A DNA stretch of 29,683 bases. Origin: a virus. Location of the stretch: the IMG/VR virus record IMGVR_UViG_3300001484_000215; one strand, 5' to 3'. The first letter of the stretch is position 1. Every line of letters starts with the position of its first letter. The position numbers and the translations under genes were made by a program. A model generated the notes under the pieces. It saw only the letters and a program-made list of their open reading frames with translations. It was not told the origin of the DNA and ran no database searches. Shown in pieces: positions 6,266-24,200 of this stretch.

Positions 6266-8782
6266 ATGTATTCTTTTTATGGCGGACAGCCTGGATATTC
6301 TTTCATAATTGTTGCAAGTTATGAAAGTGTCAATGACATGGTTACGGCTTTTAAACAAGGACCTGATTATACAACGGTCCATTTTGATGAACATGTTTTA
6401 ATTAATACTGTTAATAAAAATGACCCAGATAATGGAAAAATCTATAGACGTGGTTATGATTTTAATAATGAGGAAACAGGCGGAGCATAGTTTGTTGGTA
6501 CTATTGTTGGACCATCTGGCAACTCCCCTATTTTAAACTTAACTACTATAGATGATGTTTAGAATCAATATCACTCTGAAGGTATTGAGGAAAGATATAA
6601 GCATGGTTTTTATACTGTATCTAATGGCAATTTAGTCCCTGGTAAATATATAAATGGTGATTAGGAAGAAGCATTTAATGATAACATTGAATGGGCGAGT
6701 TACTCTGTTAGAGATGTAAATAATGTAGATACTACAGCATATATAGGATTTAAAATTCCTTATCCTGTTATTGAATTTTCAGCAAAATCAATAAATAATC
6801 CATACGCTACACCAACTACAGAATTAGATCCAGATGCAGTTCAAACTCATCCTTTTTATAAAAAATGGCAAATTGGTATACCAAAAGGAGTTAAAGGGGA
6901 CAGTGTAGGAGAATTAAGAGTTCAAGTAGCTGATGATAGCATTGAATATTATGAAGGTCGCCAAAATGATATTGATGTTGGAAATCAAGTATTAGTATAT
7001 AACCTTCATAATTATAATAACAGTGAAGAAGGGTCTGAACGAAAAATTTATTTAGGACCATACAGAGCAGTAGATAATATTACAATAGAAGACCATGGAA
7101 ATGTTGTAGTACATTATACGCATACTCCAAAAGAAGAAACTTTTGAAAAAGTAATAAAATCAATTGATTCCTTATCATTGGGGCGCGATGGAACTTTAAC
7201 TATAAACTATAATACTGAAGAACATGATATAGTAAGTGGTGAAAAAATAAAATGGATTACAAGTATAGATTCTCAAGATGGAAAAAATCTTAGTATTCAT
7301 TATAATAATGGTGATTCTGAAAATATTACTTTAGACATGGATTATGGTAAAGGTGTTACCATTGATACTTCTTTAACATGGAGAGGCGTCGGAACAGAGT
7401 CATATACTACAGGCATGATAACAGAATCATTAAAAAGTGTTAATAATTTTTTTAAGAAAAGAATTATTATTGAAAATCAATCCTTAAATAGATTTCCTCG
7501 TTTTCAAGTGCGGAGTTCACAGGAGGAAGATGTTTGGCAATACTTTGGTGCATCTCCCGGATATATAACTCAGGAAGGAATATTTAAGCCTTCTACAGTT
7601 TATTGGACCACAGATTTTATACCTATATTTAATGATAGTAAAGAATTAGAAAATATAGATTCAAACACATATGTTTTTACTCCATACGTGTTTTGTTATT
7701 TTAATGAACAAGGTGTTTTAACAGAGAAAATTGTTAATAATATAACAACATATGATATAAATTATAAATTTATTGGTCCAGGTGGCTCAAGTCCTGGTTC
7801 CCATTACATAACAAATCAAGGGGGAAAAATAAAATATATTCGACTTACCTTTACAATGCAAAATAATTATGAATCTGCGTGGGAATTACAAGATAATTTT
7901 AATTTAATGCTTTTGATGAATGGAAAAGTATATAATTCAACACAAGACCTTCCTAATCTTACCACAAATATTAATTATTTTATTGAAAACACAAATATAG
8001 AAAAATCAGTTTTTGGAACAAATTATAAAATTGCGGTATTTGGAGATGGAATTGTAGGAGGAGCCTATAATGATAATAAAAGTTATGTAACAATGGCTTG
8101 TGAATAGTTAGGAATTACTTATGATTTACATTTCTTTGGCGGAAAATGTATTGCTGATGGTATAAGTACAGAAGATGTAACATATGGTGAAGGAGATGAT
8201 GAAGAAATAAAAACAGAAACAGTTCATACTCCTGGAATAGCTAGTTTAATATCTTCTCAATATTTAACTTAGTTACAAAACGGCAATTATGATTTAATTT
8301 ATATTGCCACATCTTCAAATGACTGGTATAATACTGGACGCCCTGGCATACAAGATACTTACGCTCTTGGAACAATATCTGATGGCGCACTTGGTGAAGA
8401 TAGCTATAACACCTTTTATGGAGCTATGCATAAAATATGTCAAACATTAAAATATGTTCAAACTCCAGTTGTTATTGCAACACCATTAAAGAAATGGATA
8501 GAAAAATCCGGTTCTTATGCAAACATTGATGGTAAATTAAATTATCAAAGTCAACCTCTTTCTTTATGGAGAGATGCAGTAATATAGGTTTGTGAATATC
8601 ATGGATTCCCAGTTTTTGATTTATATAAAGAATCTTTCTTTACTCCTTGGATTTTATATGATAGAACACATTATACCGTGGCGGTTAATGAAAAATTTGG
8701 AACCCATCCGAATAATGCTGGACATACAAAAATTGCGAGACGCTTTAAAGGTATTCTTAGAGAATATTTGCCATTTGTATAA
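6266..8782 (+). CDS. Tail fibre / receptor-binding protein with a C-terminal SGNH/GDSL-type hydrolase (esterase) domain, ~838 aa.
   Basis: RBS AAGGAGG upstream of ATG 6266. It is in frame with ORF 7178..8107 and continues through TAG codons (6488, 6560, 8105, ~8270, ~8585) to TAA at 8780-8782. The C-terminal region carries SGNH-like blocks: IYIATSSNDWYN and FGTHPNNAGHTKIA (block V, GxHPNxxGH). Confidence 0.8.
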
Positions 8783-8809: not shown

Positions 8810-9160
8810 ATGGCAAATTATAATGGATTTTTTGGAAATATTCAAGGGCCATTTAATGAAAATACGGAAATTTTAACTTTAATTCAAGAGCAATGCAAAC
8901 AACGAATAAAATACATTTCTAAATTAGGAATCGTATATACTGGAGATATAAATTTAGAAGTTAATAGAGAGGATTTTCCTAAAATTATTGCTGTAATAAA
9001 CAATATTTAGTTTAGAATTGGTAAAACAAAAATGTTAGAACTAGAAGATGTTCATGTCACTTCCATAAAATTAAAAACAGAAGGCTTAGAAGAAAATGGA
9101 ATAAACTTTCAAGATATTAGTCAATATATTTATATAGATTATCAATATGTTGCTATATAA
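8810..9160 (+). CDS. Hypothetical small protein, ~116 aa, with one in-frame TAG.
   Basis: RBS GAAAGGAAAA upstream of ATG 8810. ORF 8810..9010 ends at TAG, and the frame continues to TAA at 9158-9160. Confidence 0.55.
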
Positions 9161-9173
9161 TAATAGATAAAAT

Positions 9174-9226
9174 AAAAAAATGGGATAGATATATAATAAA
9201 AAATATATCTATCCCATTTTTTTATT
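9174..9226. terminator. Bidirectional rho-independent terminator between convergent gene blocks.
   Basis: Perfect inverted repeat TGGGATAGATATAT / ATATATCTATCCCA around an AATAAAAA loop. It is flanked by an A-run on one side and a T-run on the other. Confidence 0.7.
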
Positions 9227-9234
9227 TTAATTAA

Positions 9235-10200
9235 TTATTTATTTCCAATTAATACAAATGTACTATAAATAGCATCTCCAGCTACTAACGAATAAGGATT
9301 TAATCCTGCTTCAATTTTTAAAATACGTCCTGAGTTTGCAGCAGAATCTTCTGGACGAATTGCAAGAACAACACTTTTTGTAGTAGTAGGACCATTTTCA
9401 TTAAAAGAGATAATGGTAGCTGGTACATACACACGAGTTGCGGCTAATGGTAAATTTGTAATAATATTACGATCAACTGACGCTGAAATTGCAGCTGATA
9501 CTTTAACAGCAAAAGTAATCATAAATACATGGTCAATAATCTATCTAATGTAACAGACACTTTCAGATGAAGAAAAACTTCCTCCAAAAATTGGCGTCCA
9601 AAGTGAAGAACCGCCCTCTGCTACATATCCTTTAGGTGTTATAGCAGCATAGTAAGTAGAACTAAGAGTATTGGTAGCCGAAGATGCTGCGGCATAGGCG
9701 TTAATAACTGCATCAGTACTTGCAGCATATGGCCCAGCTCCTGTAGGAGCAGTTATATAATTATCAACTATTTTCACATGACCATAGGCTGCACTTGTAG
9801 CTACTCCATAAGTAGTTTCTGAAGTTGCATGATTATTAGGAGCTTTATTTGTATTTAACGCACTATAAGCATTTACAACCGCTTGAGTGCTTGCAGCAAA
9901 AGGACCAGTAGCCTAAGGAACCGTCATATAATTATCAACAATTTTTACATGACCATAGGCTCCACTTGTAGCCACTCCATAAGTTGTATTTGCAGAGGCA
10001 TGATTTGTCGGAGCTTTTCCGCCAATTGCGGTATCCATTGTTGAAATCTTTGTACTTAAATTAGTAGAATTTCCCATATCAACATTTTCAGCCAATACTC
10101 CAATTGGATACTCTTCTGAATATGTTCCATCAGTTTGTTTTATACGAACTTTTGTTATATTACTCATATTTTCTATTTCCTTTCTATAACATTGACTCAA
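9235..10200 (-). CDS. Tail-fibre-like protein, ~321 aa, with an internal tandem repeat (TTYGVATSxxYGHVKIVDNY) that resembles a phage tail fibre repeat.
   Basis: Minus-strand ORFs 9913..10200, 9541..9777 and 9235..9522 share one frame. They are separated only by CTA (TAG) at 9913-9915 and 9541-9543. The stop is TAA at 9235-9237. RBS AGGAAATAGAAAAT. The DNA-level direct repeat spans ~9726-9860 and ~9906-10040. Confidence 0.75.
9726..10040. repeat. Two ~135-bp direct repeats (~85% identical) inside the tail-fibre-like gene.
   Basis: 9726-9860 and 9906-10040 share GACCATAGGCTGCACTTGTAGC(T/C)ACTCCATAAGT... They encode the repeated peptide TTYGVATS..YGHVKIVDNY. Confidence 0.7.
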
Positions 10201-10210
10201 TAATATTTAA

Positions 10211-10247
10211 AAATAAAAAGGGACTATTATATATAATAGTCCCTTTA
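10211..10247 (-). terminator. Rho-independent terminator hairpin after the metallopeptidase gene.
   Basis: Palindrome AAGGGACTATTATATATAATAGTCCCTT, followed on the minus strand by a T-run. Confidence 0.6.
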
Positions 10248-10257
10248 TCATTTAAAT

Positions 10258-10566
10258 ATTACCTAATTTTATAAAGATTTTATTTGTTATATAAATAATT
10301 TCTTCTCCATATGTAGAAATTAAATCAGCAATTAATTCCTACTGTTCAAGAGAAAGATTAACATTATACGAAAACATGGCGGCATGTGTAATTTCATGAC
10401 AAAGCACCTTTTTTAATAATTCTCCATATAATTGATTACTTAAATAAATAGTTCTTGTTAAATTATCACAGGCGCCAATAGAATAATCACCATTTAACCT
10501 TTGCAATAAAGGGAAGTCTGGTGAAACAAAAGCTATTTTCCAATATACATTATTAATTAAAAACAT
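10258..10566 (-). CDS. Small zinc metallopeptidase-like protein (HExxH motif; ImmA/IrrE-type or minimal M78-like), ~102 aa.
   Basis: ORF 10339..10566 ends at CTA (TAG) and continues to TAA at 10258-10260. It carries the motif VLCHEITHAAMF. Its start is 2 nt after the upstream gene's TAA stop (no overlap); there is no SD upstream. Confidence 0.6.
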
Positions 10567-10568
10567 AA

Positions 10569-11138
10569 TTATGCTATTTTATTAGCTAAAGCAGTCATTT
10601 TCTGTCGAAGAGTAGTTCTCTCTTCTGGTGAAGCATCTTTTATCATTTCAGTAATATCACTTGATAATTCTTGTAAATAAGCTTCTAACTCACGAAGTTG
10701 AGAATTGGAATCTTTATGCATTTCTTTTCCTTCCATGTACATTCGACGACGTATTGGGCTTCTTCCCTCTCTAGGATCTCTTCCCATAATATTTGGCATT
10801 TCTGTATAATAATTCATATTACCAGTATTCATACCAGAACCACCCGCAGTATAATACATATATCCATTAGATTTTTCTATCTCTCTATATGGATCATAAT
10901 ACTGCATTCTGCTATAATTAGGAGTAGTATAATAATTTATATTAGTTTCACTCTTATTATCATTACTTTTTTCCATAGAATCTGTAATGGTGCGATAATA
11001 AATAGCTTCTGCTAAATCCTTAATCATATCAACAGCTTCTCCAAGCTCATGCGCATCAGCTTTAGAAATATCTCCTAACTGATTTTGTACACAACTTGTA
11101 AGTTGGTCTTCCATTATTTTTAAAGTTTCTACACTCAT
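10569..11138 (-). CDS. Hypothetical protein (~189 aa) with a coiled-coil C-terminus; no TAG codons.
   Basis: ORF 10569..11168. The preferred start is the internal ATG at 11136-11138, which is preceded by AAGGAGGAAAATAAA. The stop is TAA. Confidence 0.6.
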   Translation of the reverse strand: MSVETLKIMEDQLTSCVQNQLGDISKADAHELGEAVDMIKDLAEAIYYRTITDSMEKSNDNKSETNINYYTTPNYSRMQYYDPYREIEKSNGYMYYTAGGSGMNTGNMNYYTEMPNIMGRDPREGRSPIRRRMYMEGKEMHKDSNSQLRELEAYLQELSSDITEMIKDASPEERTTLRQKMTALANKIA

Positions 11139-11151
11139 TTTATTTTCCTCC

Positions 11152-11586
11152 TTAGGCAGTTCTTTCAATCACTAAATTAGCGTTTTGAACATCTACATCA
11201 GTAGTTCCGATGTTTTCAACTGCTACTGTATAACAACAACCACGAGGAAGGTCAATAAAGACTGAAGCGTAAACATTCCAAAACTACTCTGCGGCAGCTG
11301 GTGTAACAATTACAGAACTTGTTGGAATAGGCTCTCCATCAATAGCTAATGCAAGGGAGAGCGGCGTTGAAGCCGCTCCTCCTTCAGGAATCGCAATGTT
11401 TGCGCCGAATGACACTTTATATCTAGCGAATCCGCTACAGTTATTGACTTGGCCTCTTAAAGTGATAATTCCAGATCCTTCTCTATGAATAATTCCTTGA
11501 CGGCATCCTGGAATTGGAACATCAGTGAACAAAACATTCTGTCCAACCGCTACAGTTTGGACTGCATTTGCTGTATATTCTGCCAT
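11152..11586 (-). CDS. BclA-C-terminal / C1q-TNF-like jelly-roll domain protein, ~144 aa.
   Basis: ORF 11284..11637 with the start moved to the ATG at 11584-11586 (RBS AAAGGGGG). It reads through one TAG (11284-11286) to TAA at 11152-11154. The C-terminus ...QNANLVIERTA and the overall pattern resemble the BclA C-terminal domain (…SASIIIEKVA). Confidence 0.55.
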
Positions 11587-11603
11587 GTCATTACCCCCTT
11601 TTA

Positions 11604-12362
11604 TTATGCTGCACATCCACCATAATTCCAGCCGCAATTACATCCAACTGGATTTGGAACAACATAAGCAGGGATAGGAGCAGGATTTAATGCTCTAAGT
11701 AAAGCAGTTGTTTGTGCGGCATTGTCATTTAAAATTTGACCAGTCTGTGCATTCTGAGATGCCGCAAGACTTGCTAAATAACTTTGCATTTGAAGCTGTT
11801 GATTTTGAGCTTTAAGAGCATCAATTTCCTGTTGACATAATTTATCAAGTATTGCTTGTGTATTTGCAGTATTAGAAGCAATTACATCTCTAAGAGCATC
11901 AGTAACTGCTGTTCTATCTGCACATGCTTCAGTAGCGACAGTATATTTTAAGTCAGCTAATCCAGCTCTATTTTCACAGCAACAATTTTGCTGATTCATT
12001 GCAATTGTATTTAACTGTGTAGAAAGATTAGCTTGATTATTGTTTAATGTTTGAAGAATATTGGCTTGAGAATTGCAACGAGAAATTTCTGCACCAGAGA
12101 AACCATTACTTATTGCAGTAGTAATTCCACTAAGTCCATTAATTAATGCGCTTTGATCGAAACCACGCTGAATATCTGCATTAACAGCATTGGTTCCGCC
12201 ATTGCCATAACCATATCCATTTCCCCATCCACCCATTAAAATTAAAATGAACAGAAGAAATACCCATGCTCCATCGCCGGTAAAACCGCCGAAACCACCA
12301 TTATTATTTCCATTAGTTGCCGCAGCGATATCTGCTAAAGAATAACCATTATTATTAAACAT
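11604..12362 (-). CDS. Cys-rich, Gly/Asn-rich single-pass membrane protein, ~252 aa; no TAG codons.
   Basis: RBS AGGAGAATG. Transmembrane segment AWVFLLFILILMGGWG. Cys clusters NCCCEN and GCNCGWNYGGCAA. The stop is TAA. Confidence 0.65.
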   Translation of the reverse strand: MFNNNGYSLADIAAATNGNNNGGFGGFTGDGAWVFLLFILILMGGWGNGYGYGNGGTNAVNADIQRGFDQSALINGLSGITTAISNGFSGAEISRCNSQANILQTLNNNQANLSTQLNTIAMNQQNCCCENRAGLADLKYTVATEACADRTAVTDALRDVIASNTANTQAILDKLCQQEIDALKAQNQQLQMQSYLASLAASQNAQTGQILNDNAAQTTALLRALNPAPIPAYVVPNPVGCNCGWNYGGCAA

Positions 12363-12406
12363 TACACATTCTCCTCTTACTTTCCAAAAAGACGATTTTT
12401 TAAAGT

Positions 12407-12646
12407 TTATTTAAATTGATTTTTTAAATTTGTTAACCCTTGTTCAAAATCTATTCCTCTTTGAGCAGCAAGATTACGAGCTAATAATTCTAATCCAGCT
12501 ATATTACCATTTTGAGCCATATTAATTGCATTATTGATAATTGGATTATTTTGACCCTTTTGTTGTAAAATACTCATTATAAGTTGTTCTGGATTGCTAC
12601 CATTTTTAATCATTGAAATCAATTGCATTGGATTAATATTATTCAT
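12407..12646 (-). CDS. Hypothetical small protein (~79 aa; the listed ORF extends to 12661).
   Basis: ORF 12407..12661. The internal ATG at 12644-12646 has GGAG 9 nt upstream and is preferred. The stop is TAA. Confidence 0.5.
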   Translation of the reverse strand: MNNINPMQLISMIKNGSNPEQLIMSILQQKGQNNPIINNAINMAQNGNIAGLELLARNLAAQRGIDFEQGLTNLKNQFK

Positions 12647-12702
12647 TATATTTTTCTCCATTAAAATTTCATAGATGTTTTATTTTCATTATTATCAGTA
12701 GA

Positions 12703-13149
12703 CTACAATGAATTATTTGTCGGTTGAATACTTGCCATTAAAGCTTGAATAACCTTATTAAACTCATCTTTCGTTACATATTCAGATGTTGCATCATATG
12801 GATTTTCATCTTTTACAAAAGCATAAGTTTTGAAAGTAGCTGTCCCATCACTATTAATTTGTTTTGTATAAATTTTACCATTACCTAAATCAGTAAACAC
12901 CCAAAGAGAACCATCTAAGTCAATTTGGCAAGCTCTTGCTTCATCTTTTGATGAAACAGGTCTACATTTTAAATATTGACGAGATAACAAATCTTGAGAA
13001 TCAATTCTTCGATTGCCCATATAATTATCATATGGAGTATTACTCAATAACATGTTATTGTTCCCATAGGGAGTTTGCATTTGCGGTTGCCCCATTATTC
13101 CATACTGAGGCGTTTGCAAATTAAGATTAGGATTATTGTAATTTGCCAT
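12703..13149 (-). CDS. Hypothetical protein, ~148 aa; no TAG codons.
   Basis: Strong RBS AGGAGGAAACGTA upstream of the ATG. The stop is TAA. Confidence 0.65.
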   Translation of the reverse strand: MANYNNPNLNLQTPQYGIMGQPQMQTPYGNNNMLLSNTPYDNYMGNRRIDSQDLLSRQYLKCRPVSSKDEARACQIDLDGSLWVFTDLGNGKIYTKQINSDGTATFKTYAFVKDENPYDATSEYVTKDEFNKVIQALMASIQPTNNSL

Positions 13150-13293
13150 TACGTTTCCTCCTAGCGGTATACCTAAATTAATCTTATAAGTTACAACTTC
13201 ATATACGCGTATTATAGGAATAAAAATATTATCTATTTTTACTCCTACATCTATATATTAAAATTTCCTATAATCACTTAATTAATTTTGACC

Positions 13294-13322
13294 TTGACAA
13301 CTATAAAAATTTTTAGTATAAT
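13294..13322 (+). promoter_or_regulatory. Consensus sigma70-type promoter (TTGACA-N17-TATAAT) for the resolvase gene.
   Basis: TTGACA at 13294-13299, an exact 17-nt spacer, and TATAAT at 13317-13322. The RBS AAAAGGAGATGAGAAT and ATG 13348 follow. Confidence 0.7.
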
Positions 13323-13347
13323 AGGGGCAAGAAAAGGAGATGAGAAT

Positions 13348-13836
13348 ATGAGAATTTTATCATTAGATTTATCAACAAAAAGCACTGGCTGGTGTGTTGG
13401 TTAGAATTAGTCTATTATGTCACATGGATGCATAACCGCCAGTTCAAAAGATACAATAAAACGTATTATAAAAATGAGAGATGAATTATCTAAAATTATA
13501 AAAAATAATAAAATATAGAAAATTATTATGGAATAGGTACGACAATAGTACAGCTCACATACTAGCAAAATTTTAATGTGGTTACAAGCAGCAATAGTAA
13601 TAATGGCATATGAAATTGATCCCAAAATTATATGTGATTTCATTAGTGCTTCAACATGGCGGGCAGCTTTAAAAATAAAACAAGGTCGAGGTATAAAAAG
13701 AAATGACCTCAAACCGCAAGATATTTAGTATGTAAAAAACAAATATAATATTATAGTAAATGATGATGAAGCAGATGCTATATGTATATTTGATGCATAT
13801 AATGAAAAATTTAATAATTAGATAAATTGGGAATAA
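13348..13836 (+). CDS. RuvC-like Holliday junction resolvase (phage type), ~162 aa, with 5 in-frame TAG codons.
   Basis: Starts MRILSLDLSTKSTGWCVG (RuvC/YqgF N-terminal Asp motif). Carries a C-terminal DEADAICIFDAY motif. Reads through TAG only to TAA at 13834-13836. Confidence 0.7.
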
Positions 13837-13880
13837 AAAATAGGGATAGATTAATTCTATCCCTATTTCTCTTCTTTATT
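13836..13880. terminator. Bidirectional rho-independent terminator between the resolvase gene and the minus-strand tail genes.
   Basis: Hairpin TAGGGATAGA-TTAAT-TCTATCCCTA with T-runs on both strands. Confidence 0.65.
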
Positions 13881-14051
13881 CTATTGTTGAAGTTGTATAT
13901 TTATATAATCAATATAACTTTTTTCAACATTTGTATATATATCCTTTATTGTATAATATTTAATAATTGGTGGTAAATTATTACTATTTAATAAATTCAT
14001 AATTTGTTGTTTAAACTTTTCACATGTTAAAGAAAAATCTTGTTGTTCCAT
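13851..14051 (-). CDS. Possible small ORF (~66 aa) immediately after the tail protein gene.
   Basis: ATG 14049-14051 follows the upstream TAA. The frame reads through 3 TAG codons to TAA at 13851-13853, inside the terminator stem. The RBS is weak (GGAGA 11 nt upstream). Confidence 0.35.
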
Positions 14052-14057
14052 ATTTAA

Positions 14058-17000
14058 TTATTCTCCATTTTTGGGATTTTCTTCCTACTCATCATCCATA
14101 TGTTCTTTAATCCAGTTAATCTCCTTTTTAATTGCAGTTATTTCACTACAAATGTTATAAGCATGTTGTAAATTTGTACATATAAAATCTTTTGCATAAA
14201 CCTGACCGCCGCCGTTAAGCACAAAATCATAATCTCCTGGCTAACCGCTCTAGTGTTCTCCTGTATGACTAAACCACATCCACCAAGGAGAAGAATTATT
14301 TATATTTGCTGAAACTGCCATAGATTTATTTTGATTACAAAAAAGATTTCTGCCATATGAATTTCCAATAACAAAATCTCCTAATTTAATAATTCCTGAT
14401 TTAGCATATAATAGTTGATTTCCAATATCAATACTTCCACCAGTAATAGTTCCACCATTTAAAAAGAAATCATTACCATTATATCTTAAATAATTTCCTT
14501 TAGAAGATGTAAAATCTAATGTTCCATTAGCTCCTAGAAAAGCTCCTACATTACTATCTCCATATGCCTTTTTATCATTAGTATGTAAAGAATCTTTATC
14601 AATAGTCCATCCTGCAATGGTAGAAGTTCCTCCTGGAACTAATTTTATTTGTCCTTCTCCTGGTCTACCAAAAGTTGCATTACCAGTGCTAGCATCTAAA
14701 TAAATGCTCATAATACCTTTTGAAAAACCTAATAAGCCATTTTTAGATGATGAATCACTCTATTTTACAACTCCCATAACTACGCCAGTAAAATTATTAT
14801 TTTTATCTTTCTCACCCGCGCCCATCTGAGGAGCTAAAATATATCCACCCTATTCATTAATTTGAACATTATTTCCATCCCATGCATTAAGATTTGCTAA
14901 ACCATAACGATTCAAGAGAAAATGAATTGGAACTTGAATATATGCCATTACTTTATTATTTTTATTTTTATACGCACAAATAATAGCATTATTAACGCAC
15001 TCACCATCATATTTTGAATTAGGATAACATTTGCATTGATTTTTTTCTAAAGTATTATCTTTTATTATTGTTAATAAATTAGATTTGGTTAGAGTCCCAT
15101 TCGTTCCTTTTTTTACATTTCCATTTACAGCAAAATCATAAGTAATACTATGATCGCCCTCTACTAAAGAAACATCTTCCCAAACATCATTAATATTTTC
15201 TTTACATTTAAATTCAAAAGGATGAGAATTATCATATTGCGGGGATGTACCATCAGAAGTATATAAAACATATTTAAAACCAGTGTGGTCCGTCAATGAA
15301 ACTCGATATTTATTTGAATTAACCCATGCCATCACTATTGGACATGTGCCATAGTATGTTTTTCCTTCATATGTAATACTACATTTTATAATATTAGCTA
15401 ATGGCTCTCTTGTAAGCCAATCATTTTTACCATCTGCACCGGGACCATAAAAATAATTTTGATTTTTTACTTTTATATATCCATCACTAGATACTATAAA
15501 AGCAGAGTCATCTGTGTAATTTCTACTATATTTATTTATCAAATTTTCCCATTTTACTTCAGTTAATCCATTTAATTGATTTTTAGAAGTAGTAAAACCT
15601 TCCCAAATCATTTCTCCGCTATGCCATAATTGAACTTTTAATAGCCTGTTACCATTGCCTTTTACGAAATCATTTAAATTAAGTATATGCTAAGATTTTA
15701 TAGAATCTAATCCATAGTTTAAAATATATTCTTTATCTTGTCCAGAATAAGTAACAATAGGAAAGACTGGAGGAGAACTTAATCTTGTATTTGGAACCAC
15801 TTTTACAATATATTCAGTTCCATTTGTTCCAGGCTATCCTTGTTTAGTAAAAGTAAAATCAGTTTTTGCGGTTAGATTCATACCTTTATAATCAACTGTC
15901 AATTTAATTTGATTATTTTGTTTTTTAATATCATATCTTTGAGCAATGTCATATGTTAAATTTGTAACATTATCATAGTATTTATATGTTTGAGTAGAAT
16001 CTGTTCCTGAGTCTTTTTGTGAATTAGTATTAACTAATAAAGTATCTTTTATTGGAAATTCCCAACGAATTGAACAATTCTTTGATTTTAAAAGTACATC
16101 ATTATCAACAGGATTTCCTAAATTATCATATATAGTAAAACTTAAAGCTTGAATATTTTGTTGCTATTCTAAACTCTTATTATTTGGAGCAACTCCGTAT
16201 TCATTATATTGAAAAACTACAGAACTATTATTAATTACAAGAGAATAGAGGTCTTCTCCTTTTAATGAATTTGTTAAAGTAATAGATGCAGTTCCTAAAT
16301 ATTTACTACCATCATAAACAGAACATTTAAAAATAGCTAAATTAGTAATAGTATTAATTTGAACCTTATGAATTTGATTTTTTTCAACTCTTTGAATTGA
16401 ATCAAAAGCTTTTACAGCTTTTTTACGTTTATTTAATTCTTCTGCTTCTGCATTTGCAAATCTTTTACCTATTGCAATTTGATTTTGTAACCATTCTAAT
16501 TTTTCTACCGCATTATGATAATTAGTATTATTAGTAGTTGTTTCATATAATAATGTAAAAACACCTGTGTCTGACTATATGCCCCAATAATAGTTGTAAT
16601 TCTTATTTTCATTTCCATTTATCTTACAAGTTAAAGTTGGATGTCCTATATCATAATAAAATTTAGTCCCTGCATCTGACTAAATTGTAATCTTAGGAAC
16701 TTGATTAGTTAAATTTTTAATAGTTATAATTTTAGTTATAACTGTTCCATTATATACAACAGCTACTTTAAATCTATTCTATGCGGCCGTTGCTGCACTC
16801 TTTGCAACTGTATAAGTATCTGAACCAGGAATCCAAACATAAACTGGATTAATACCTTGTGCAGTATTTCCATTTACCGCAGTTTCTCTTTTATTCAAGC
16901 ACGCCCATCCTCTACCAAGATACTTATTATAAAAAGCATTGGTTGGAGTAACTCTTACGTTTTCATTTCCCCAATAGAAAGAGATGTCTTGAGCGGAAGA

Positions 17001-17951
17001 GGCTAATTTTCCTTTTACTCTAACCTGCGCGGTTATAGTTTTAAAATTACTTTCACCTTCTGCACCAGTAAAAACAGTACCTTGCGGGGTATAAAAAGAT
17101 ATTGCTACCCCATTAATTTCTTCTTCTGTCATCCGAGTAGCCCCAGAAAGTTCTAAGGAAGAAATTATTATATCTCCTTTTGTTAACAACTTAGTGCTTG
17201 TTCCAGTTGCACCTGGGAAATCTTGATTAAAAATCTCTATTGATTCAACTCTTATAAAACTTGAACCATCTATATTAAAAATTTCATATTGTCTTGTTTC
17301 ATATAATAATCTATATGGATTATCTATCATATTATCTTCATTTAAAGTATATGATCGAATAATCTAACTGGAAGTTGCATTATCTTTAAATCGCAAATTA
17401 AAGGTAATTCCATAATGTCCCTTGTACTGTCGCTAAGGCGCTATATCAGTTTTAAACATTCCTCCCACAATAAGAGAAGAAGATTGTTGTAAATATTCTT
17501 TTAATGCCTCTTCATCAAAACTAATTTTATTACTATTTCCGCCATTATACTTATATATAGTATATTTATAATTTTTATTTTTAGTATCTAAATAAAAAAT
17601 ATTATTAGAAATAATACAATTATTACCGATAATATTATAAGCCTAATCTCCCTAAGCCTATGAAATATAATTAATCCCTAATTTTTTAGTTGTTCCAAGA
17701 ATTGTTTTTTCTTTTCCCATATCTCCGCCAGGAACAAGAACATAAACATAAGAACCTTTATTAAAAGTTACATCAGAATTGCTTGCATAAGCATATATAG
17801 TTGCATCTTGATATCTACATCTATACTTACCTATTGTCGCATCTTCGCATGAAAGAATTTGAGCTTGAATTGTTTTATCATATCCAGCTTTTTTTACAGA
17901 ATTTTCAGCTAATAATTCAATAGCATCTAAAATTTTATCTTGTACGCTCAT
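14058..17951 (-). CDS. Large tail-associated / host-recognition protein (Tal/RBP-like), ~1297 aa, with ~12 TAG codons.
   Basis: RBS AAGGAGGAAAATAATTTA upstream of ATG 17949-17951. ORFs 17658..17951, 16779..17330, 14850..15611 and 14250..14711 share one frame. Codon-by-codon reading of the intervening segments (17331-17660, 15612-16781, 14712-14852, 14058-14252) shows only CTA (TAG) interruptions. The stop is TAA at 14058-14060. Confidence 0.8.
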
Positions 17952-18234: not shown

Positions 18235-21200
18235 TTATCTTCGCATAGCTCTTTGAGCAGCTAAATTAACTAAATCACTAAGTGCTTCTTCAATTTCTCT
18301 TTTACTATTAACATTTGGGAATGAAGCATCTATATGAACATTTTGTTCAAGTTCTTCGCTATCTCCTAAATTGTTATAAGTACCAGATTTAATACCACTG
18401 GTTCTAGCAAATAAGTCTCCATTTAAAGAATCAGTAATGGATTTTAAAAGACTCATTGTATTGAATAAGTTTTCAGTATCGTCAGCATTTAATACTAATT
18501 CTTTTTTGTGTAATACAGCTAACTTGCCTCCATTACCACTCCAATCACCTGTATATCCACCAGTATCTAATCTAGCGAAAAGTTTTTCCCAATCAAGTAT
18601 GTCTTCAATATCTGAAGAATCGCCACCAGGAACTAAATTCCAAATATTGTCAGGAATATTAACAGTCTAACCATCATCAGTAGTATATTTTTTCGTACCA
18701 GTAACAATATGACCTTGTCTTTCTAATTCATCAAACCATTCAGAAGAAAAATCTTCTATCTGTTTGATTTCTTCTTCCTCAGCAAAAGGATGAGTATATA
18801 AAGTCTTTCCTTTTAAATAATCTTCTGAAACGTATCCAGGAGTATCATCTAATATTGTATTTTGATTTGAATTATACTAACCTGATTCTTTTAGTTTTTG
18901 GAAATCAAATACAGTAGGATATTTTTTACCAGTAATCTGTTCTGCATAAGTTTCATTATCATCATCTTCATTATCGTAATCTCTATCATCAAAAACATCT
19001 GACTTATTTTCTTGCATCGCCTCATGAATTACAGAAACTGCATCTTTAGCTGCATTATAAACTCCATTATATTCTTCCATTAAAGCATGGGCGGCATTTT
19101 TTAATTGTTCAACAGCCGTTAATTCATTACCCATTGTAGTAATTAAATCTTCATTTTTAGTAATTAAATCACCAAAAGAAATAGCTAAATCATCAACTCC
19201 GCCTTTAACATTTTGAAGATCTATGCCAGCAACATTAGCCATCTCATCTAATTGATTTTGATAATCTAACGTAGCTTGATTAATATCTTCAAAGGCTCCT
19301 TGACAGACTGGAATAAATCCACCCTATCCAGCAACCCTGTCAGTCATCTGCTGAATACCGCTTTCCCAAGTAGGAACTAATTCATTCATTAAAATGTTTT
19401 GTTCATCTGTAGACATCTGTTTATAATTATCAACATCTGTCCGATATAATGCAGCAATATCTGCAAAAGCAGATTCTTGTAGATTATTTCTAATAACTAG
19501 ATTTTCCGCGGTTTTATTATTAATATATTGTCCATATTGCTCTCTTAATAAAGCACTATTAGCAACTCTCTAATCCTCTGATAAAGAACTGTCAGTCATA
19601 ATATCTTTATATTGTTCTTGAAAATCTTTCCATGCTCCAAGAATATCTTCTAAATTAGAATTATATCTGTCTTTATCAAAATTATAAAGGTCATTTTGAG
19701 CGGTAGCCAGTCCCTATTCAGCTTCAGAAATATTACTTTCATCTGCGACATATTCATATGAATAATTACCTTGAGCATCTCTCTTTAATCTCATAGAAGT
19801 TTTACTTGCTTGAGCATCTTCTAAAGCTATTCTTGCTTGCTCAATTTGTAATAACTTCTCGGCTCTTTGAACATCATATTCTGTTAATTTTTCTTTTGCT
19901 TTAAGGTTATTTAACTACTGATCCATTAATTTCTTTAAGGCTTGCTGATTTTTTAAGACTTTTGTATCATCAATAGCTTTTTGGAATTTATTTTCTAAAT
20001 CTTGAACAGCAAAAGCAGAATTAATAGTATCTAAATATTCATCTGCATTTTTCTTCATTAAATCCCAACTAGTTTCTAAATAATTGGTTCCTAATCCACC
20101 GCTAATTTTTTTATCTAAGTCATCAAAAATACTATCAATTGCGTTAATATATTTATTTCTTAAATTCTCAGCTGATTCTTCTATTAATGAATTTAAATTA
20201 CCAATAGTTTCTTTATAATGTTCTTCAAATTGTTTTGCGGCTTCTGAATCTCCACGAGCAACCGCCGCATCCCATTGTTCTTTCCAGAAATCTCTTTGAC
20301 GTTTTAATGAATCTAATTGTTTTAAGTTATTATTATGCAATGTTGTGTAATATTTATCCATTGCTTCATAATTTTTATCACCATACAATAAAGATAGCAA
20401 ATCAATGTCATGTTCAATTAAATCACCAATTAATCCATAATTATCAATTTGTTTATCAAATTGTTCTGAAATATCATCAATTGTATCAAGATAAGCCTGG
20501 TCAATATTATCAATTAAACTTTCAATATCTTGCATTTGTTGCATCAACTCATCAAGATCATTTTGTAAATCTTCCATAGCACGTTTTTTATCAGTGCCAT
20601 AAATAGAAGATTCACCGCCAGAATTAATTTCATCTAATTCTTCTTGGGTTGCCAATAATTGATTAGTTAATGCTTCTATACTTCCCTGACCATTTACATC
20701 AAAATAAGATAATACATCAGCATATCCTTGTTCAATATCTTTAAACATTTTATCAAAATTAGACTCTTTTAAAATATTAGAATGATTAAGAACATTTCTT
20801 TCAAATTCATTCCATTTTCTTTCAGCCTAACCCATATTTAAAGATACTTCGATTTCAATTCTAAAATCTTCAATCTTTTTCTAGATTTGTTTATAAGCAT
20901 ATTCTTCTTGTTGTTCTAAACTATCGGTAAATCTATCCTATAAAGTAACATATCTTTGTACTAACTATGTTAATTCTTCTAATCTTTCTTTTTCTTTCTA
21001 ATACTATTCTTTGAAAGCATCTTGCTAATCTTTTGTCATAGCATCATGCTTCTAATTTAATTGTTTACGCTTTTCTTCAATTTTAAGAATTAAATCTTCA
21101 TAATTAGTAATTTCATTAGTATTAGGATCAAATATAGCACCCTATAATTCTAATACTTTTTTAAGTTCCTCTTGTTCTTTTTTAATTATTTCTTGTTTTT

Positions 21201-24200
21201 CTTTTTCTGCTTCTATTTGTTTTTCTAAAATCTTTAATTCATCTTTTAAAACATCTTGAAGCTATTTTCCATATGTTTTTTCTCTTTTTTTCTATAAATC
21301 GCTATATTCTTTACCTAATTTTGAAATTGTTTTATTTACATTATGATATTTTGCTTCACGGTCTGGTTTAATAGCTTTTGATTTAGTAGGAGTTTGAGTT
21401 TTACCTCCTCCTCCTTTTCCTCCACCGCCTTTTTTACCTCCAACATTAGTATTTCTTGTTTTATGGCTAATATTACCGCCAGAAGTCTTATTAGGATTAA
21501 TTACTTTTACTGCCATTGCAGTTTGAACTTTTTCAGTTTCTATCGGATCAGTTTTGGCAGGACCTACTTGAATCTTAGGATAATGTATTGTTCTATGAAT
21601 ATTCTCTCCAAATTGAGGAATATTAAAAGGAGGTAATGTAGCATTCTGTAAAGAAGGAATTTCAATATCACCAGGAACATCTATCATTTCTACATCTGTT
21701 CCAGGTGCCTACATAGAATCAGTAGCTTTAGTTGTATCAGTAGTTGTTTCTATTGAAGTGCTTAAATTCTCAGCAGTAGCTGCACCAGCTTCAGCAGTTT
21801 TAGCTTTTATAACATCAGTAGCTCTTTCTATAAAATTAGTCGCTTCAGCCATAGAAGATTCTACAGGAGTAACATCTATCGCATCAAAAGAAATATTATT
21901 TAAACTTAAAACATTTTTTATATCATCTATAGTTGCACCGGCATCATATAAAGCTTGTGCTAATGAGTCTATAAAAGCAGTATCTTCAATCTATCCAAGC
22001 TCTAAACCATCTAATTTATTAAGAAATTCTTGATATTCACTCTAATCTATATTAAAATTTGCAGCTATATCAACAGAAATATCTTTTCTAATATTATTTA
22101 AAGCATCTAAATCATTATTTTTAATAATTGAATTTAAATCATCTGCATATTTTTTAATCCAATCATCATCTACATAATCCTACGCGAGTCCCACTATAGC
22201 TGAAAAATCTTTCTTTAAAGATTTAAAACTTTTAGATAAATTAGAATTTAAATCTATCTCATTTTCTTGATTATTTTTTAATAATTTTAAAATTTCAGAA
22301 TAATCTTTATAGTTTGTTTTTAAATCTATTAATGCATCATTTAATCTAATATTGTAAACAGCATTGTCTGCAATTTGTTTACCAGTTAATTCTAAATTAT
22401 CATTTAGCTTTGCTTGTGATTCAGTTAAATCAACTACTCGCTATTCATCAATTCCATATTCTTGAGCTAATTCAGCTGCATAAGTAACCATTTGAAGCTA
22501 ATTTAAAGCAGCTTTTTGTTGCTCCTAATTTTGTGTTTTTGAAACTTGTAAATAACGATTTAAAGCTGCTGTACAAGAATCATATTGACTAGCTAATTGC
22601 TAAACTTTTTGTCTATAATCTTCCATTTTTATAGCGGAAATAGCTATATCTCCCTAAAAAGAAGAGCCAGGATTATGTACTTTAAAAGCTAAAGTAGAAA
22701 GCTAATACAATTCCTTAGCAGAATCAATAGTATCTATAATTCTTTTAGATCCAGTTTCTCTAGAAATTTCTCCAGTAGACATCTGTTTAGAATATAACTA
22801 TTGTAAGGAAATTTTTAATTTAGATAATTCATTTTGATACTATCTTGTTCCAGCTAATTCTGTATTAAAAAGATTTTTATAATTAGCCATTAACTCTGGA
22901 TAAAGAACAGAAATTTCATTTAATTCCGCTTTTAACTCTTGTAATTCTTTTTTAGATAATTTAGTTCCTTTTGCAACTTTTTGTAAACCAGAAATTGTCT
23001 ATCCTAATCTTAATAAACCTTCCTAAATAATTGATATATCTTCATTAGCCTAAGCAGCTTTTAAATAATCCTACCAATTTAAAGAAGTAAATTTAATAGT
23101 ATTTAAAAAGTCGGCAATAGATAATCCTTTTACATTTAATGCGTTTTTTATCCGTTCAGCAGTAAAACCCTCAAATAAAGAGGACAATATAGTTTCAGCG
23201 GTATCATCGGTTATTTCTGTTGCTTTTAATTGTTCTTGTATACCTTTAAAAACTTCATCATTTACTTTTCCAGTTTCTTTTAATATTTGTCCAACAGTTG
23301 AATCAATTTTTCCTGAACCTAAGTAATATTTATAAATTAAATCTTTATAAAAATTAGCTTCAACAGAATCCCCTAAACCAGCCTCTTGTAATGTATGTAA
23401 GTTTTGAAAAGCTTCAGGATACCAAGCTTTAATTTGTTCGAAACTTCTTTCCTATAATGTCTTTATAACACCAAATATAGTATCATAATCACTATAATTT
23501 TTATCCTAATTTAAATCATTATCTTTTATTATATTATCTTTATTTTCTTTAAAATATTTTTCTAAATCTATTAAAGTTTTTAAATCAGCAATATTAATAT
23601 TTAAAAAATCGTCTATGATACCAGCCTATTTAACAACATTCTGTAAAGCTTGTTGTTGAACAATATCTAAGCCCATATAATTAACTTTATCATTTTGTTT
23701 ATATGCGTTTGTATTAGATACTTTATTTTGAATATCTTTAGCATTTTGTTTTAATTTTTCATTAGTTATCTATTTTTGAATATCTAATTGAATTTTTAAT
23801 TCTTCTTTTACATTTTTTAATTTCTATAATTCTTCTTGCTAAACTAAAGTTAAAGAGCCTGCTGATTGTAATTCTTTTATTCTATCTTCTGTTGTTTTTA
23901 GTTCTGACTATAATTGCTTTAATTCATTTTGTGCTTGAGAATAAGCTTGAGCACTTTCTTCAATTGCTTTATCTGCCTATTTTACACTTAAATGCAATTT
24001 ATCATATATAGCGATTGCTCCACCTATTGCAGCAATTGCTATTGCAAATGGAGCTATTGTTGCTATAAATTTTAACATAGCTTTTCTTGAAAGCTAAAGA
24101 GCAGCTGCATGAAGTTTTTCGGCATTGGCAGCTAGGGCAGCTGCACCAGCCTAAGCTTCCTATACAGTTTGTAATCCTATTAATGCTACTATTTGTGCGC

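Follow-up and report, generated by a model that had tools for sequence, protein, structure and literature searches.

A conserved accessory gene cassette of gut Bacillota phages that pairs a jelly-roll protein with a Cys-rich membrane-type protein

The 29,683-nt viral DNA held in IMG/VR as IMGVR_UViG_3300001484_000215 (hereafter the window, meaning that whole stretch), which is part of a 65-kb human-gut contig, carries on its minus strand six small, tightly packed, co-directional genes in the order g6-g5-g4-g3-g2-g1 (10252-13149). These genes are here read as an operon-like, horizontally mobile, 'moron-like' accessory unit of gut Bacillota phages that builds a membrane-anchored complex and provides neither virion nor spore parts, a reading to which we give a probability of about 0.45. 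It is the combination of a tight unit, a fixed gene order, a variable genomic location, absence from related phages, and unusual codon usage that marks it as a mobile accessory cassette.

No paper describing the module was found, and a literature search for phage-borne BxpB/ExsFA-like or exosporium-like modules returned nothing relevant; all of the protein families are PHROGs of unknown function, catalogued under that description only. The cassette is best classed as a new type within the phage accessory or moron cassettes and not as a demonstrably new mechanism. Given that a fixed module of six to seven genes passes from temperate to large recoded phages and back, it probably serves a selectable function in gut life, and its candidate anchor protein, g4, is common to crAss-like and archaeal viruses. 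The cassette is also a test case for the way in which recoded phages keep some of their genes compatible with the standard code, the depletion of the recoded codon being seen in nine recoded genomes that are independent of one another, yet single TAG codons sit inside essential domains of cassette proteins. Since Butyrivibrio phage Ceridwen, which infects B. fibrisolvens DSM 3071, is a cultured carrier, direct testing is possible.

Organization of the cassette

A first-pass annotation of the window had listed six small genes, and this inventory is confirmed by an independent public gene call of the parent contig, which returns the same six products (162, 79, 252, 144, 189, and 104 aa). The right border that had been proposed (13149) is exact, whereas the left one (10258) lies 6 nt inside the stop codon of g1. 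All on the minus strand, the genes are g6 (162 aa; 12661-13149; phrog_21718 family), g5 (84 aa, or 79 aa from the alternative start at 12646 in the gene call; 12407-12661), g4 (252 aa; 11604-12362; phrog_16490 family), g3 (144 aa; 11152-11586; phrog_20016 family), g2 (189 aa; 10569-11138; phrog_28802 family), and the HExxH peptidase-like g1 (104 aa; 10252-10566; phrog_1233). The true start of g3 is Met11 of a longer open reading frame (ORF), downstream of AAAGGAGG. Strong, AGGAGG-type Shine-Dalgarno sites precede g6, g4, g3, and g2; they had been claimed for the whole set, but g5 and g1 start by coupling, the g6 stop and the g5 ATG overlapping as TAATG and the g2-g1 spacer being 2 nt. The TAATG overlap depends on read-through of an in-frame TAG in g6 (12703-12705), which is located 14 codons ahead of the TAA that overlaps the g5 start.

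Directly 3′ of g1 is an intrinsic-terminator-like hairpin with a 13-bp stem and a T-run (10217-10246, minus strand), recovered also by a palindrome search, which closes the six-gene unit ahead of a gene for a 310-aa fibre-like protein. The divergent intergenic region upstream of g6 (13150-13347) contains a perfect TTGACA-17-TATAAT promoter (13294-13322, plus strand) that is directed away from the cassette, toward a RuvC-like resolvase gene. At loci L004, L007, L026, L039, and L066, a recurrent element ∼60-120 nt upstream of g6 begins with a 'CTGATACTTTT' box and continues with a U-run hairpin and a sequence resembling AAATATAAT; it could represent a terminator plus promoter, or an attenuator, and is matched by no Rfam family.

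Signal peptides are not visible in the sequences of g1, g2, g3, g5, and g6, and scans of the six proteins against Pfam, NCBIfam, and PADLOC yielded nothing over threshold, the single PADLOC match (HEC-02B to g2, E=0.019) being at chance level. The first-pass remark that this is not a typical phage structural set is borne out.

Conservation and genomic context

Homologous loci were collected through g3, by a family scan of one genome per GTDB species (80 loci) to which eight phage records were added (88 loci in all); cassettes without g3 are under-sampled in this collection. Iterated hidden Markov models (HMMs) of the six window proteins were run on these loci and the window (89 sources), many of which are cut by contig ends. 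The order g6-(g5)-g4-g3-g2-(g1) is fixed throughout the 88 further loci, g4 being present in 82 of the 89 sources, g6 in 76, g2 in 67, g1 in 32, and g5 in 24. Homologues thus cluster together in other phages, in the same order, and neither of the outcomes that the first-pass annotation had named as counting against its view was found, these being a cluster that is not conserved and proteins with confident homology to ordinary head or tail accessory proteins of phages.

The carriers are mostly gut Lachnospiraceae, Oscillospiraceae, Ruminococcus, and Acutalibacteraceae, and some Bacilli are also among them; the host labels of several metagenome-assembled genomes (MAGs) are implausible and probably result from binning errors. 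Carrier metagenomes come from the guts of humans, lemurs, rabbits, rodents, and ruminants, and the cultured carriers include Ceridwen and the chromosome of a Lachnospiraceae isolate. Ceridwen is the only Butyrivibrio record among the g3 matches, five B. fibrisolvens phages having been described together, and no g3 match was found in the related Phass-1 or Enterococcus EF1-like phages.

The position of the cassette varies. It follows the lysis genes in Ceridwen and Dulem virus 33 and adjoins an integrase in Dulem virus 39. In Dulem virus 35 and in the chromosome of Lachnospiraceae JLR.KK009 it has a head-morphogenesis gene on one side and scaffold/capsid genes on the other; the JLR.KK009 copy is interrupted between g4 and g3 by an inserted C5-methyltransferase gene. 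In temperate phages it is usually found between endolysin and integrase and sometimes among head genes. Comparison of the nearest large flanking ORFs of the genome loci with PHROGs identified mainly integrases (at least 11 members) and endolysins (several families, ∼5 each), and after these minor-head and scaffold proteins. Where the flanks could be annotated they are phage genes, and no sporulation locus was recognizable around the cassette.

A seventh gene, g7 (∼125 aa; phrog_3754), is located directly upstream of g6 in most temperate loci (e.g., L001 7074-7451, L002 6334-6714, and L046 3130-3513) and is missing from the window. Its conserved motifs, GDCxxRA and GHxVxVxDGxYYDTWDSG, suggest a small Cys-His-Asp peptidase or transglutaminase-like enzyme. 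The RAGATH-21 RNA motif (RF03097) is found immediately downstream of g2 in two phages, and the int-alpA RNA motif (RF02996) precedes the C5 DNA methyltransferase inserted between g4 and g3 in Lachnospiraceae prophages (motif sites at L004 9097-9173, L007 9121-9205, L046 6822-6886, and L039 7094-7159).

The cassette resembles phage morons (prophage toxin, superinfection exclusion [Sie], and defence genes) in being optional and mobile, in occupying the endolysin-integrase site among varied positions in unrelated phages, in ending at its own terminator-like hairpin, and in a composition and codon usage that set it apart from adjacent genes. Unlike morons, it comprises six to seven genes in fixed order rather than one or two, is carried also by large, apparently virulent recoded phages, and has no recognizable toxin, defence, or exclusion domain.

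Depletion of TAG codons

When TAG is read as a sense codon the window gives long genes (TAG-open ORFs of 955, 670, 838, 1297, and 2908 codons), whereas under the standard code the same genes are fragmented; TAA is the stop of every gene, and the phage reads TAG as Gln. Against this background the cassette stands out, with 3 TAG to 55 CAA/CAG codons compared with 127 to 312 in nine other recoded genes of the window (5% versus 29% of the Gln-type codons; Fisher p=2.4e-5). The first-pass description of the genes as almost TAG-free therefore holds as far as paucity is concerned but not literally: g4 and g2 have no TAG, and besides that of g6 there is one in g3 (codon 101 of 144; 11284-11286), where the standard-code ORF stops, and one in g1 (codon 76; 10339-10341), immediately before the invariant E77. 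Eight other TAG-recoded loci have usable flanks, and in these the corresponding figures are 15/291 for the cassette and 135/629 for the flanking long genes; the direction is the same in all eight, four being individually significant at p<0.01. In every recoded phage examined, TAG use in the cassette is four to five times below that of neighbouring late genes.

A study of recoded gut phages reports that recoded codons cluster in structural genes and above all in those for lysis, and that they are avoided by early, replication, and integrase genes (bioRxiv 10.1101/2021.08.26.457843); set against this pattern, the TAG-poor cassette behaves unlike a structural or lysis module. The few TAG codons that it does contain fall in different genes according to lineage (g4, g2, and g6 in other recoded phages), for which reason a role of TAG as a timer for g3 and g1 was set aside. 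In 1-kb steps, the G+C content of the cassette is 0.35-0.39 compared with 0.26-0.30 around it, single genes ranging from 0.25 to 0.42.

The jelly-roll protein g3

The g3 product (phrog_20016, 1.3e-50) is, according to its AlphaFold2 (AF2) model, a stand-alone jelly roll of the TNF/C1q/BclA-C-like type, all-beta with ten strands and a predicted local distance difference test score (pLDDT) of 84.5. Foldseek against the PDB places BxpB (8d02) and ExsFA (7r1m/9h3d) at the top, with template modelling (TM) scores of 0.70-0.72, E ∼2e-5, and 15-17% identity; next in rank come phage fibre knobs, TNF ligands, and C1q heads. Across BxpB, ExsFA, EDA, 4-1BBL, and C1q the E-values extend from 2e-5 to 1e-3 and the TM scores from 0.5 to 0.72, and the best EDA-A1 and C1QL chains (TM 0.70-0.71) are level with the exosporium matches. 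The knobs include the short tail fibre of cyanophage A-1(L)/A4 and the phi812 spike. Among viral models the closest are stand-alone gut-phage proteins of 130-142 aa, and C1q-type viral fibres are matched as well. Model and fold search together uphold the first-pass identification of a BclA-C/C1q-like jelly roll.

A profile search of 1.84 billion cluster representatives gave 851 family members (50% identity clusters), and at 90% identity g3 has ∼4,000 clusters. All 150 listed representatives are short (80-196 aa, most ∼135-160), most match from residue 1, and none contains a fused stalk, a collagen-like region, or a long fusion, so g3 is not the tip of a longer fibre. Tail fibres and receptor-binding proteins have an N-terminal anchor or shaft and a variable C-terminal tip, an architecture that g3, standing alone in the listed representatives, does not show. 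The family alignment contains invariant residues H34, R35, G37, and G39 (HRxGxG) and C117-C118 (CC), and identity between unrelated phages is 50-57%; judged from these alignments, such conservation is too high for a receptor-binding tip. The TAG codon lies in the middle of the domain, at a site where the closest homologues have Gln (alignment column AAEQ[FY]W), and without suppression the jelly roll would be truncated.

In its fold and approximate size g3 is comparable to BxpB/ExsFA of the Bacillus cereus group (8d02, 7r1m, 9h3d), and like them it has no signal peptide and is encoded together with a Cys-rich partner. It differs from them in being phage-encoded, in showing no sequence-level match, and in lacking the N-terminal targeting extension, since the protein begins directly with the beta domain (MAEYT...) and has neither an exosporium-targeting N-terminus nor a collagen stalk. 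The membrane-type g4 that accompanies it has no relationship to ExsY/CotY. The Pfam model of BclA_C (PF18573) scores 22.3 bits on g3 against a cut-off of 38, and a phmmer search of PDB sequences with g3 gave no relevant match and no exosporium protein.

The membrane-type protein g4

The g4 product (phrog_16490, 1.4e-34) was described in the first-pass annotation as a Cys-rich, Gly/Asn-rich single-pass protein, which agrees with its composition (27 Gly, 33 Asn, and 9 Cys; family mean 12.9 Cys, range 8 to >13) and its one hydrophobic segment. An acidic N-terminal tail of ∼30 aa is followed by this segment (∼residues 31-45), flanked by Gly-rich runs. Beyond it come two long predicted helices whose joining turn bears CCC, then a region rich in Pro and a tail rich in Cys and Gly; C127-C129 (CCC), F88, and C96 are invariant. 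The hydrophobic segment is conserved, and the N-flank has a net charge of −2.4 and is almost devoid of K/R. The AF2 model places the helices at residues 70-125 and 135-224.

The family is large, at least 8,000 candidates having been reached in a search, and clear homologues that include the hydrophobic segment occur in many crAss-like phages, Bacteroides phage C3_41T2LP, Methanomassiliicoccales viruses, and a C. perfringens phage. The proteins cr116_1 gp022, cr4_1 gp16, and C3_41T2LP gp36 are true homologues over the hydrophobic and helical/Cys regions (g4 family profile versus C3_41T2LP gp36, E=1e-35). Names such as 'spike protein/glycoprotein' and 'outer capsid protein/viral fiber', which crAss-like homologues (cr116_1 gp022 and cr4_1 gp16) carry, appear to be annotation guesses, that is, unverified transfers. 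In Bacteroides, crAss-like, and archaeal viruses the homologues (e.g., the phrog_16490 members at L095 4680-5597, L096 4713-5690, L098 4632-5555, and L099 5758-6654) usually have lysis or virion genes close by, and the ORFs that come after them are small and unrelated. The HMMs built from g3, g6, and g2 detected nothing among the neighbours of g4 homologues in crAss-like, Bacteroides, and C. perfringens phages, and hhalign of the g3 family against the genes following g4 homologues in cr4_1, C3_41T2LP, and XP41-N3 found no similarity; of the cassette genes, those viruses have only g4 in common with the loci above.

The remaining proteins

g1 is most likely to be a minigluzincin-like metallopeptidase of ∼100 aa with an HExxH...E arrangement: its motif H57-E58-x-x-H61 (HEITH) and E77, the presumed third zinc ligand, are invariant in 24 homologues, and the family profile matches selecase MJ1213 (E=7e-4), IrrE (0.009), and WLM (0.026). 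The peptidase assignment of the first-pass annotation is in line with these matches. Individually, g1 matches phrog_1233 (1e-12) and remains under the Pfam cut-offs for SprT-like (22.4/25.6 bits), Peptidase_M78 (14.3/22 bits), and DUF6782. With selecase MJ1213, projannalysin, ImmA/IrrE, and SprT/WLM the putative enzyme shares a length of ∼100 aa and an HExxH motif with a downstream Glu. It differs from ImmA/ImmR pairs in that there is no ImmR-type partner, sequence, Pfam, and PHROG scans having found no helix-turn-helix protein in the cassette or beside g1.

The two low-complexity proteins noted in the first pass are g6 and g2. The disordered, N/Q/P/Y-rich N-terminus of g6 leads into a conserved domain that is small and rich in beta structure, and the protein ends in a helix (family consensus WVxGExxAKAY...IYxKSxDxxG; a homologue matches phrog_21718 at 3e-74); a profile of g6 found nothing meaningful among PDB sequences. 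In g2, helical ends surround a disordered centre that is Y/N/M/G/R-rich in the window and R/S/Y/G/D-rich in relatives; a homologue matches phrog_28802 (2e-91), and g2 itself has only sub-threshold Pfam and NCBIfam matches. g5 is a small, helical, N/Q/M-rich protein that occupies the same position in 24 loci, and a divergent homologue in L046 matches phrog_22984 (4e-34).

Proposed model

The charge distribution around the hydrophobic segment predicts an N-out/C-in topology for g4, which would place its Cys-rich helical domain in the cytoplasm together with the five signal-less partners. In the model proposed here, g4 would span the cytoplasmic membrane so that only its short acidic N-tail is exposed outside, while the helical hairpin of ∼200 residues, tipped by CCC, would be kept in the cytoplasm together with the tail rich in Cys and Gly. 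Members of the g3 fold class are typically trimers. A probably trimeric g3 would dock on g4 via conserved Cys motifs, the invariant CC of g3 and the CCC and C-terminal tail of g4 suggesting either direct contact or a shared metal or disulfide chemistry. Topology, trimer fold, and Cys motifs together suggest a TNF-ligand-like arrangement in which membrane anchor, stalk, and trimeric head are split over two polypeptides. By analogy with the anchor, elongated stalk, and jelly-roll head of TNF-superfamily and C1q fibres, the anchor and a helical stalk would come from g4 and the head from g3; unlike those proteins, the cassette would use two polypeptides with a presumed mutual contact and a stalk predicted to be cytoplasmic, and it shows no sequence relationship to them. 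The disordered Q/N/P/Y/R/S-rich regions of g6, g5, and g2, with their short folded flanks, may act as adaptors or chaperones, and g1 may process a cassette component or a host target.

The complex would act on the membrane of the infected or lysogenic cell, and superinfection exclusion or envelope conversion at the membrane is the specific role that we would tentatively prefer, with low confidence. The surface-remodelling or superinfection module that the first-pass annotation offered as another possibility would be compatible with the present findings. In our opinion, because the cassette is largely in the host's standard code, most of the complex may be synthesized ahead of the late code switch or irrespective of it.

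Several observations weigh against this interpretation. In large recoded phages the cassette adjoins tail-fibre genes, and in crAss-like phages g4 relatives adjoin lysis or virion genes. No convincing candidate for a promoter facing the cassette was found in the divergent region 13150-13347, and no PADLOC defence model matches the cassette. The pLDDT of the g4 model is low (44.6), so that both the helical hairpin and the docking of g3 on g4 are inferred. The scarcity of TAG could just as well stem from recent and repeated acquisition from phages that use the standard code; the higher G+C content fits this alternative, which is compatible with the comparison to structural and lysis genes given above. 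Moreover, as TAG codons interrupt conserved domains of g3 and g1 and as the g6-g5 junction needs read-through, production of the full set requires a suppressor, and the cassette therefore cannot be purely 'early'.

Alternative explanations

Among the alternatives, the one that survives best, itself unlikely, holds that the products are virion accessory proteins, with g3 as a trimeric knob or decoration, g4 either as the stalk of a fibre or as a pilot protein that is ejected and inserts into the membrane, the disordered products as assembly chaperones, and Cys disulfides stabilizing the particles after release. It draws on the fold matches of g3 to phage fibre knobs (A-1(L)/A4, phi812 spike) and C1q-type viral fibres, on the proximity of tail-fibre-type genes, seen both here and in large phages that are related, on the location inside the head module of some prophages, and on the names 'viral fiber/spike' that others have given to crAss-like relatives of g4; the in-frame TAGs of g3, g1, and g6 imply, moreover, that expression overlaps the recoded late phase. 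Against this view, the genome position is not fixed, being mostly beyond the lysis genes and beside the integrase, the cassette is missing from related phages, and it is TAG-depleted relative to structural genes in 9/9 recoded genomes. Furthermore, g3 is without an attachment or stalk domain in the listed representatives and is far more conserved than receptor-binding tips, and g4 has a conserved transmembrane-type segment.

A role in lysis is decidedly unlikely. On this view g4 would be a class-III-like holin or lysis regulator of the T4 holin T type, which also has a short N-tail, one transmembrane segment, and a large C-terminal domain, or else a spanin-like coiled coil, and its partners would tune the timing. 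Endolysin/holin genes do precede the cassette in Ceridwen, Dulem virus 33, and C. perfringens phage XP41-N3, as lysis genes precede the relatives of g4 in the crAss-like cr4_1 and cr116_1; endolysins also rank among the most frequent flanking genes, and the hosts of g4-carrying viruses differ greatly in their envelopes. Against this, we know of no role for spanins in monoderm hosts, g4 matches no holin, spanin, or lysis family of PHROG or Pfam, no endolysin is found near the cassette in the window, and in Ceridwen there is a predicted terminator between the cassette and the lysis genes. Lysis genes are also the most enriched in recoded codons (bioRxiv 10.1101/2021.08.26.457843), whereas g4 has 0 TAG among 20 Gln-type codons.

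It is improbable, too, that the cassette is abortive-infection or anti-phage cargo in which g4 is a membrane-disrupting effector, g1 (with g7) a protease switch, and g3 a sensor of phage proteins. The typical cargo position in temperate phages, the separate terminator, and the standard-code-like codon usage would suit such a function, and a membrane protein combined with small peptidases is common in defence systems. PADLOC provides no match, however, and low-complexity sequence makes up much of three of the six proteins, a composition seldom seen in defence systems. In addition, most loci lack g1 (present in 32/89 sources), and large, virulent-looking phages also carry the cassette.

The first-pass annotation likened the set to spore-surface or appendage components, and in its strongest form this idea would have coat-like proteins supplied by the phage being deposited on host spores, with g3 as a BxpB/ExsFA analogue, g4 as a Cys-rich, ExsY/CdeC-like protein, and the Gln- and Tyr-rich g6 and g2 as cross-linkable partners. 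It is now very improbable. In its favour, the best solved neighbours of g3 are the exosporium proteins BxpB/ExsFA, signal peptides are lacking as in coat proteins made in the mother cell, the proteins are Cys-, Gln-, and Tyr-rich, most carrier genomes are from Clostridia, many of which sporulate, and the placement of g7 upstream of the Gln-rich g6 recalls, as an analogy only, the cross-linking of GerQ by transglutaminase. The likeness of g3 is at the level of fold only, though, at 15-17% identity and with a TM score of 0.70 that is comparable to EDA-A1/C1QL and little above the phage knobs. The family models are likewise unmatched: BclA_C is under its Pfam cut-off on g3, DUF3992/Ena gives no Pfam match at E<=1 and no Ena chain among the top 50 PDB folds, and CotJ gives no match at E<=1 in Pfam or NCBIfam for any of the six proteins. 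Annotated flanks are of phage type with no recognizable sporulation locus, and inspection by eye of the regions upstream of g6 in 66 loci recognized neither a sporulation-type nor a shared promoter. The Bacillus phage records searched contain no homologue, the sole Clostridium phage record is a single, weak match to g4, the carriers include Butyrivibrio and MAGs labelled Mollicutes or Anaeroplasmatales, and g4 relatives occur in viruses of Bacteroides and of methanogenic archaea. To our knowledge, Butyrivibrio fibrisolvens, one cultured host, is not known to sporulate.

We likewise give little credence to a phage-borne, self-assembling, cross-linkable layer, nucleated on the membrane by g4, built of g3 trimers, and cemented by the Cys/Gln/Tyr-rich partners (in relatives g7 would take part), which would be a counterpart of the exosporium basal layer or of baculovirus-type occlusion bodies and, if real, would re-coat host spores or embed and protect progeny for gut persistence and transmission. 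As a variant, g3 may be released at lysis as a TNF/C1q mimic acting on the animal host.

Other features of the window

The gene for the tape-measure protein (2908 aa; 18235-26961, minus strand; PF10145 in the public gene call) contains 62 in-frame TAG codons, and after it is the gene for a 1297-aa tail protein (14058-17951; 16 TAG). A 670-aa tail protein is 34% identical to a protein of Phass-1, a 136-kb TAG-to-Gln recoded siphovirus with a predicted Clostridia host (PMC10607447), and is more distantly related to proteins of the ∼140-kb EF1-like phages of Enterococcus and to proteins of Enterocloster phages. Megablast of positions 9000-14000 against 50,697 phage records gave no match. An Rfam scan of the window detected no RNA family, and a tRNA scan detected no tRNA gene and therefore no suppressor tRNA in the window.

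Beside the cassette, the 310-aa putative 'tail fibre' of the first-pass annotation (9235-10167, minus strand) has no match in Pfam or PHROG; it contains a ∼57-aa unit twice in tandem (153-nt repeat, 78% identity, spacing of 171 nt), whose motif is NHA..TTYGVATS.AYGHVKIVDNY. On the other side, the RuvC-like resolvase gene (13348-13836, plus strand; 7 TAG in 162 codons) is the most heavily recoded gene of the window, yet it lies behind the perfect TTGACA-17-TATAAT promoter, so that a host-type promoter is paired with translation that must await a suppressor.

Palindromic, terminator-like hairpins at 9175-9222 and 13838-13868 are similar, sharing the core GGGATAGAT, and enclose a 4.6-kb segment that comprises the fibre-like gene, the cassette, and the RuvC-like gene; a search for flanking direct or inverted repeats marking an insertion found only these two terminators, which are not decisive. 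In loci L044, L009, and L071 the cassette is also found near a RuvC-like gene, although the arrangement differs, and L044 has in addition homologues of the two upstream genes of the window's tail-fibre region. As the same genes are arranged differently in L044, recombination between hairpins of this kind may have reshuffled the 4.6-kb segment.

The 838-aa tail-fibre-type protein (6266-8782, plus strand; phrog_5240) has a GDSL/SGNH-esterase-like C-terminal region, whose match to Pfam Lipase_GDSL_2 (E=1e-3, under the cut-off) hints at a deacetylating, receptor-destroying tip. At the opposite end, an 820-aa major-vault-protein (MVP)-like product truncated by the window end (27222-29683, plus strand) combines the MVP shoulder domain PF11978 (E=7e-22) with an SPFH/Band-7 domain (PF01145) and has no PHROG match. 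In no other locus is a gene of this type linked to the cassette. It contains no TAG codon and prefers CAG for Gln (17/25), unlike the remainder of the window, and such an MVP/SPFH-like protein in the standard code is unusual within a recoded phage.

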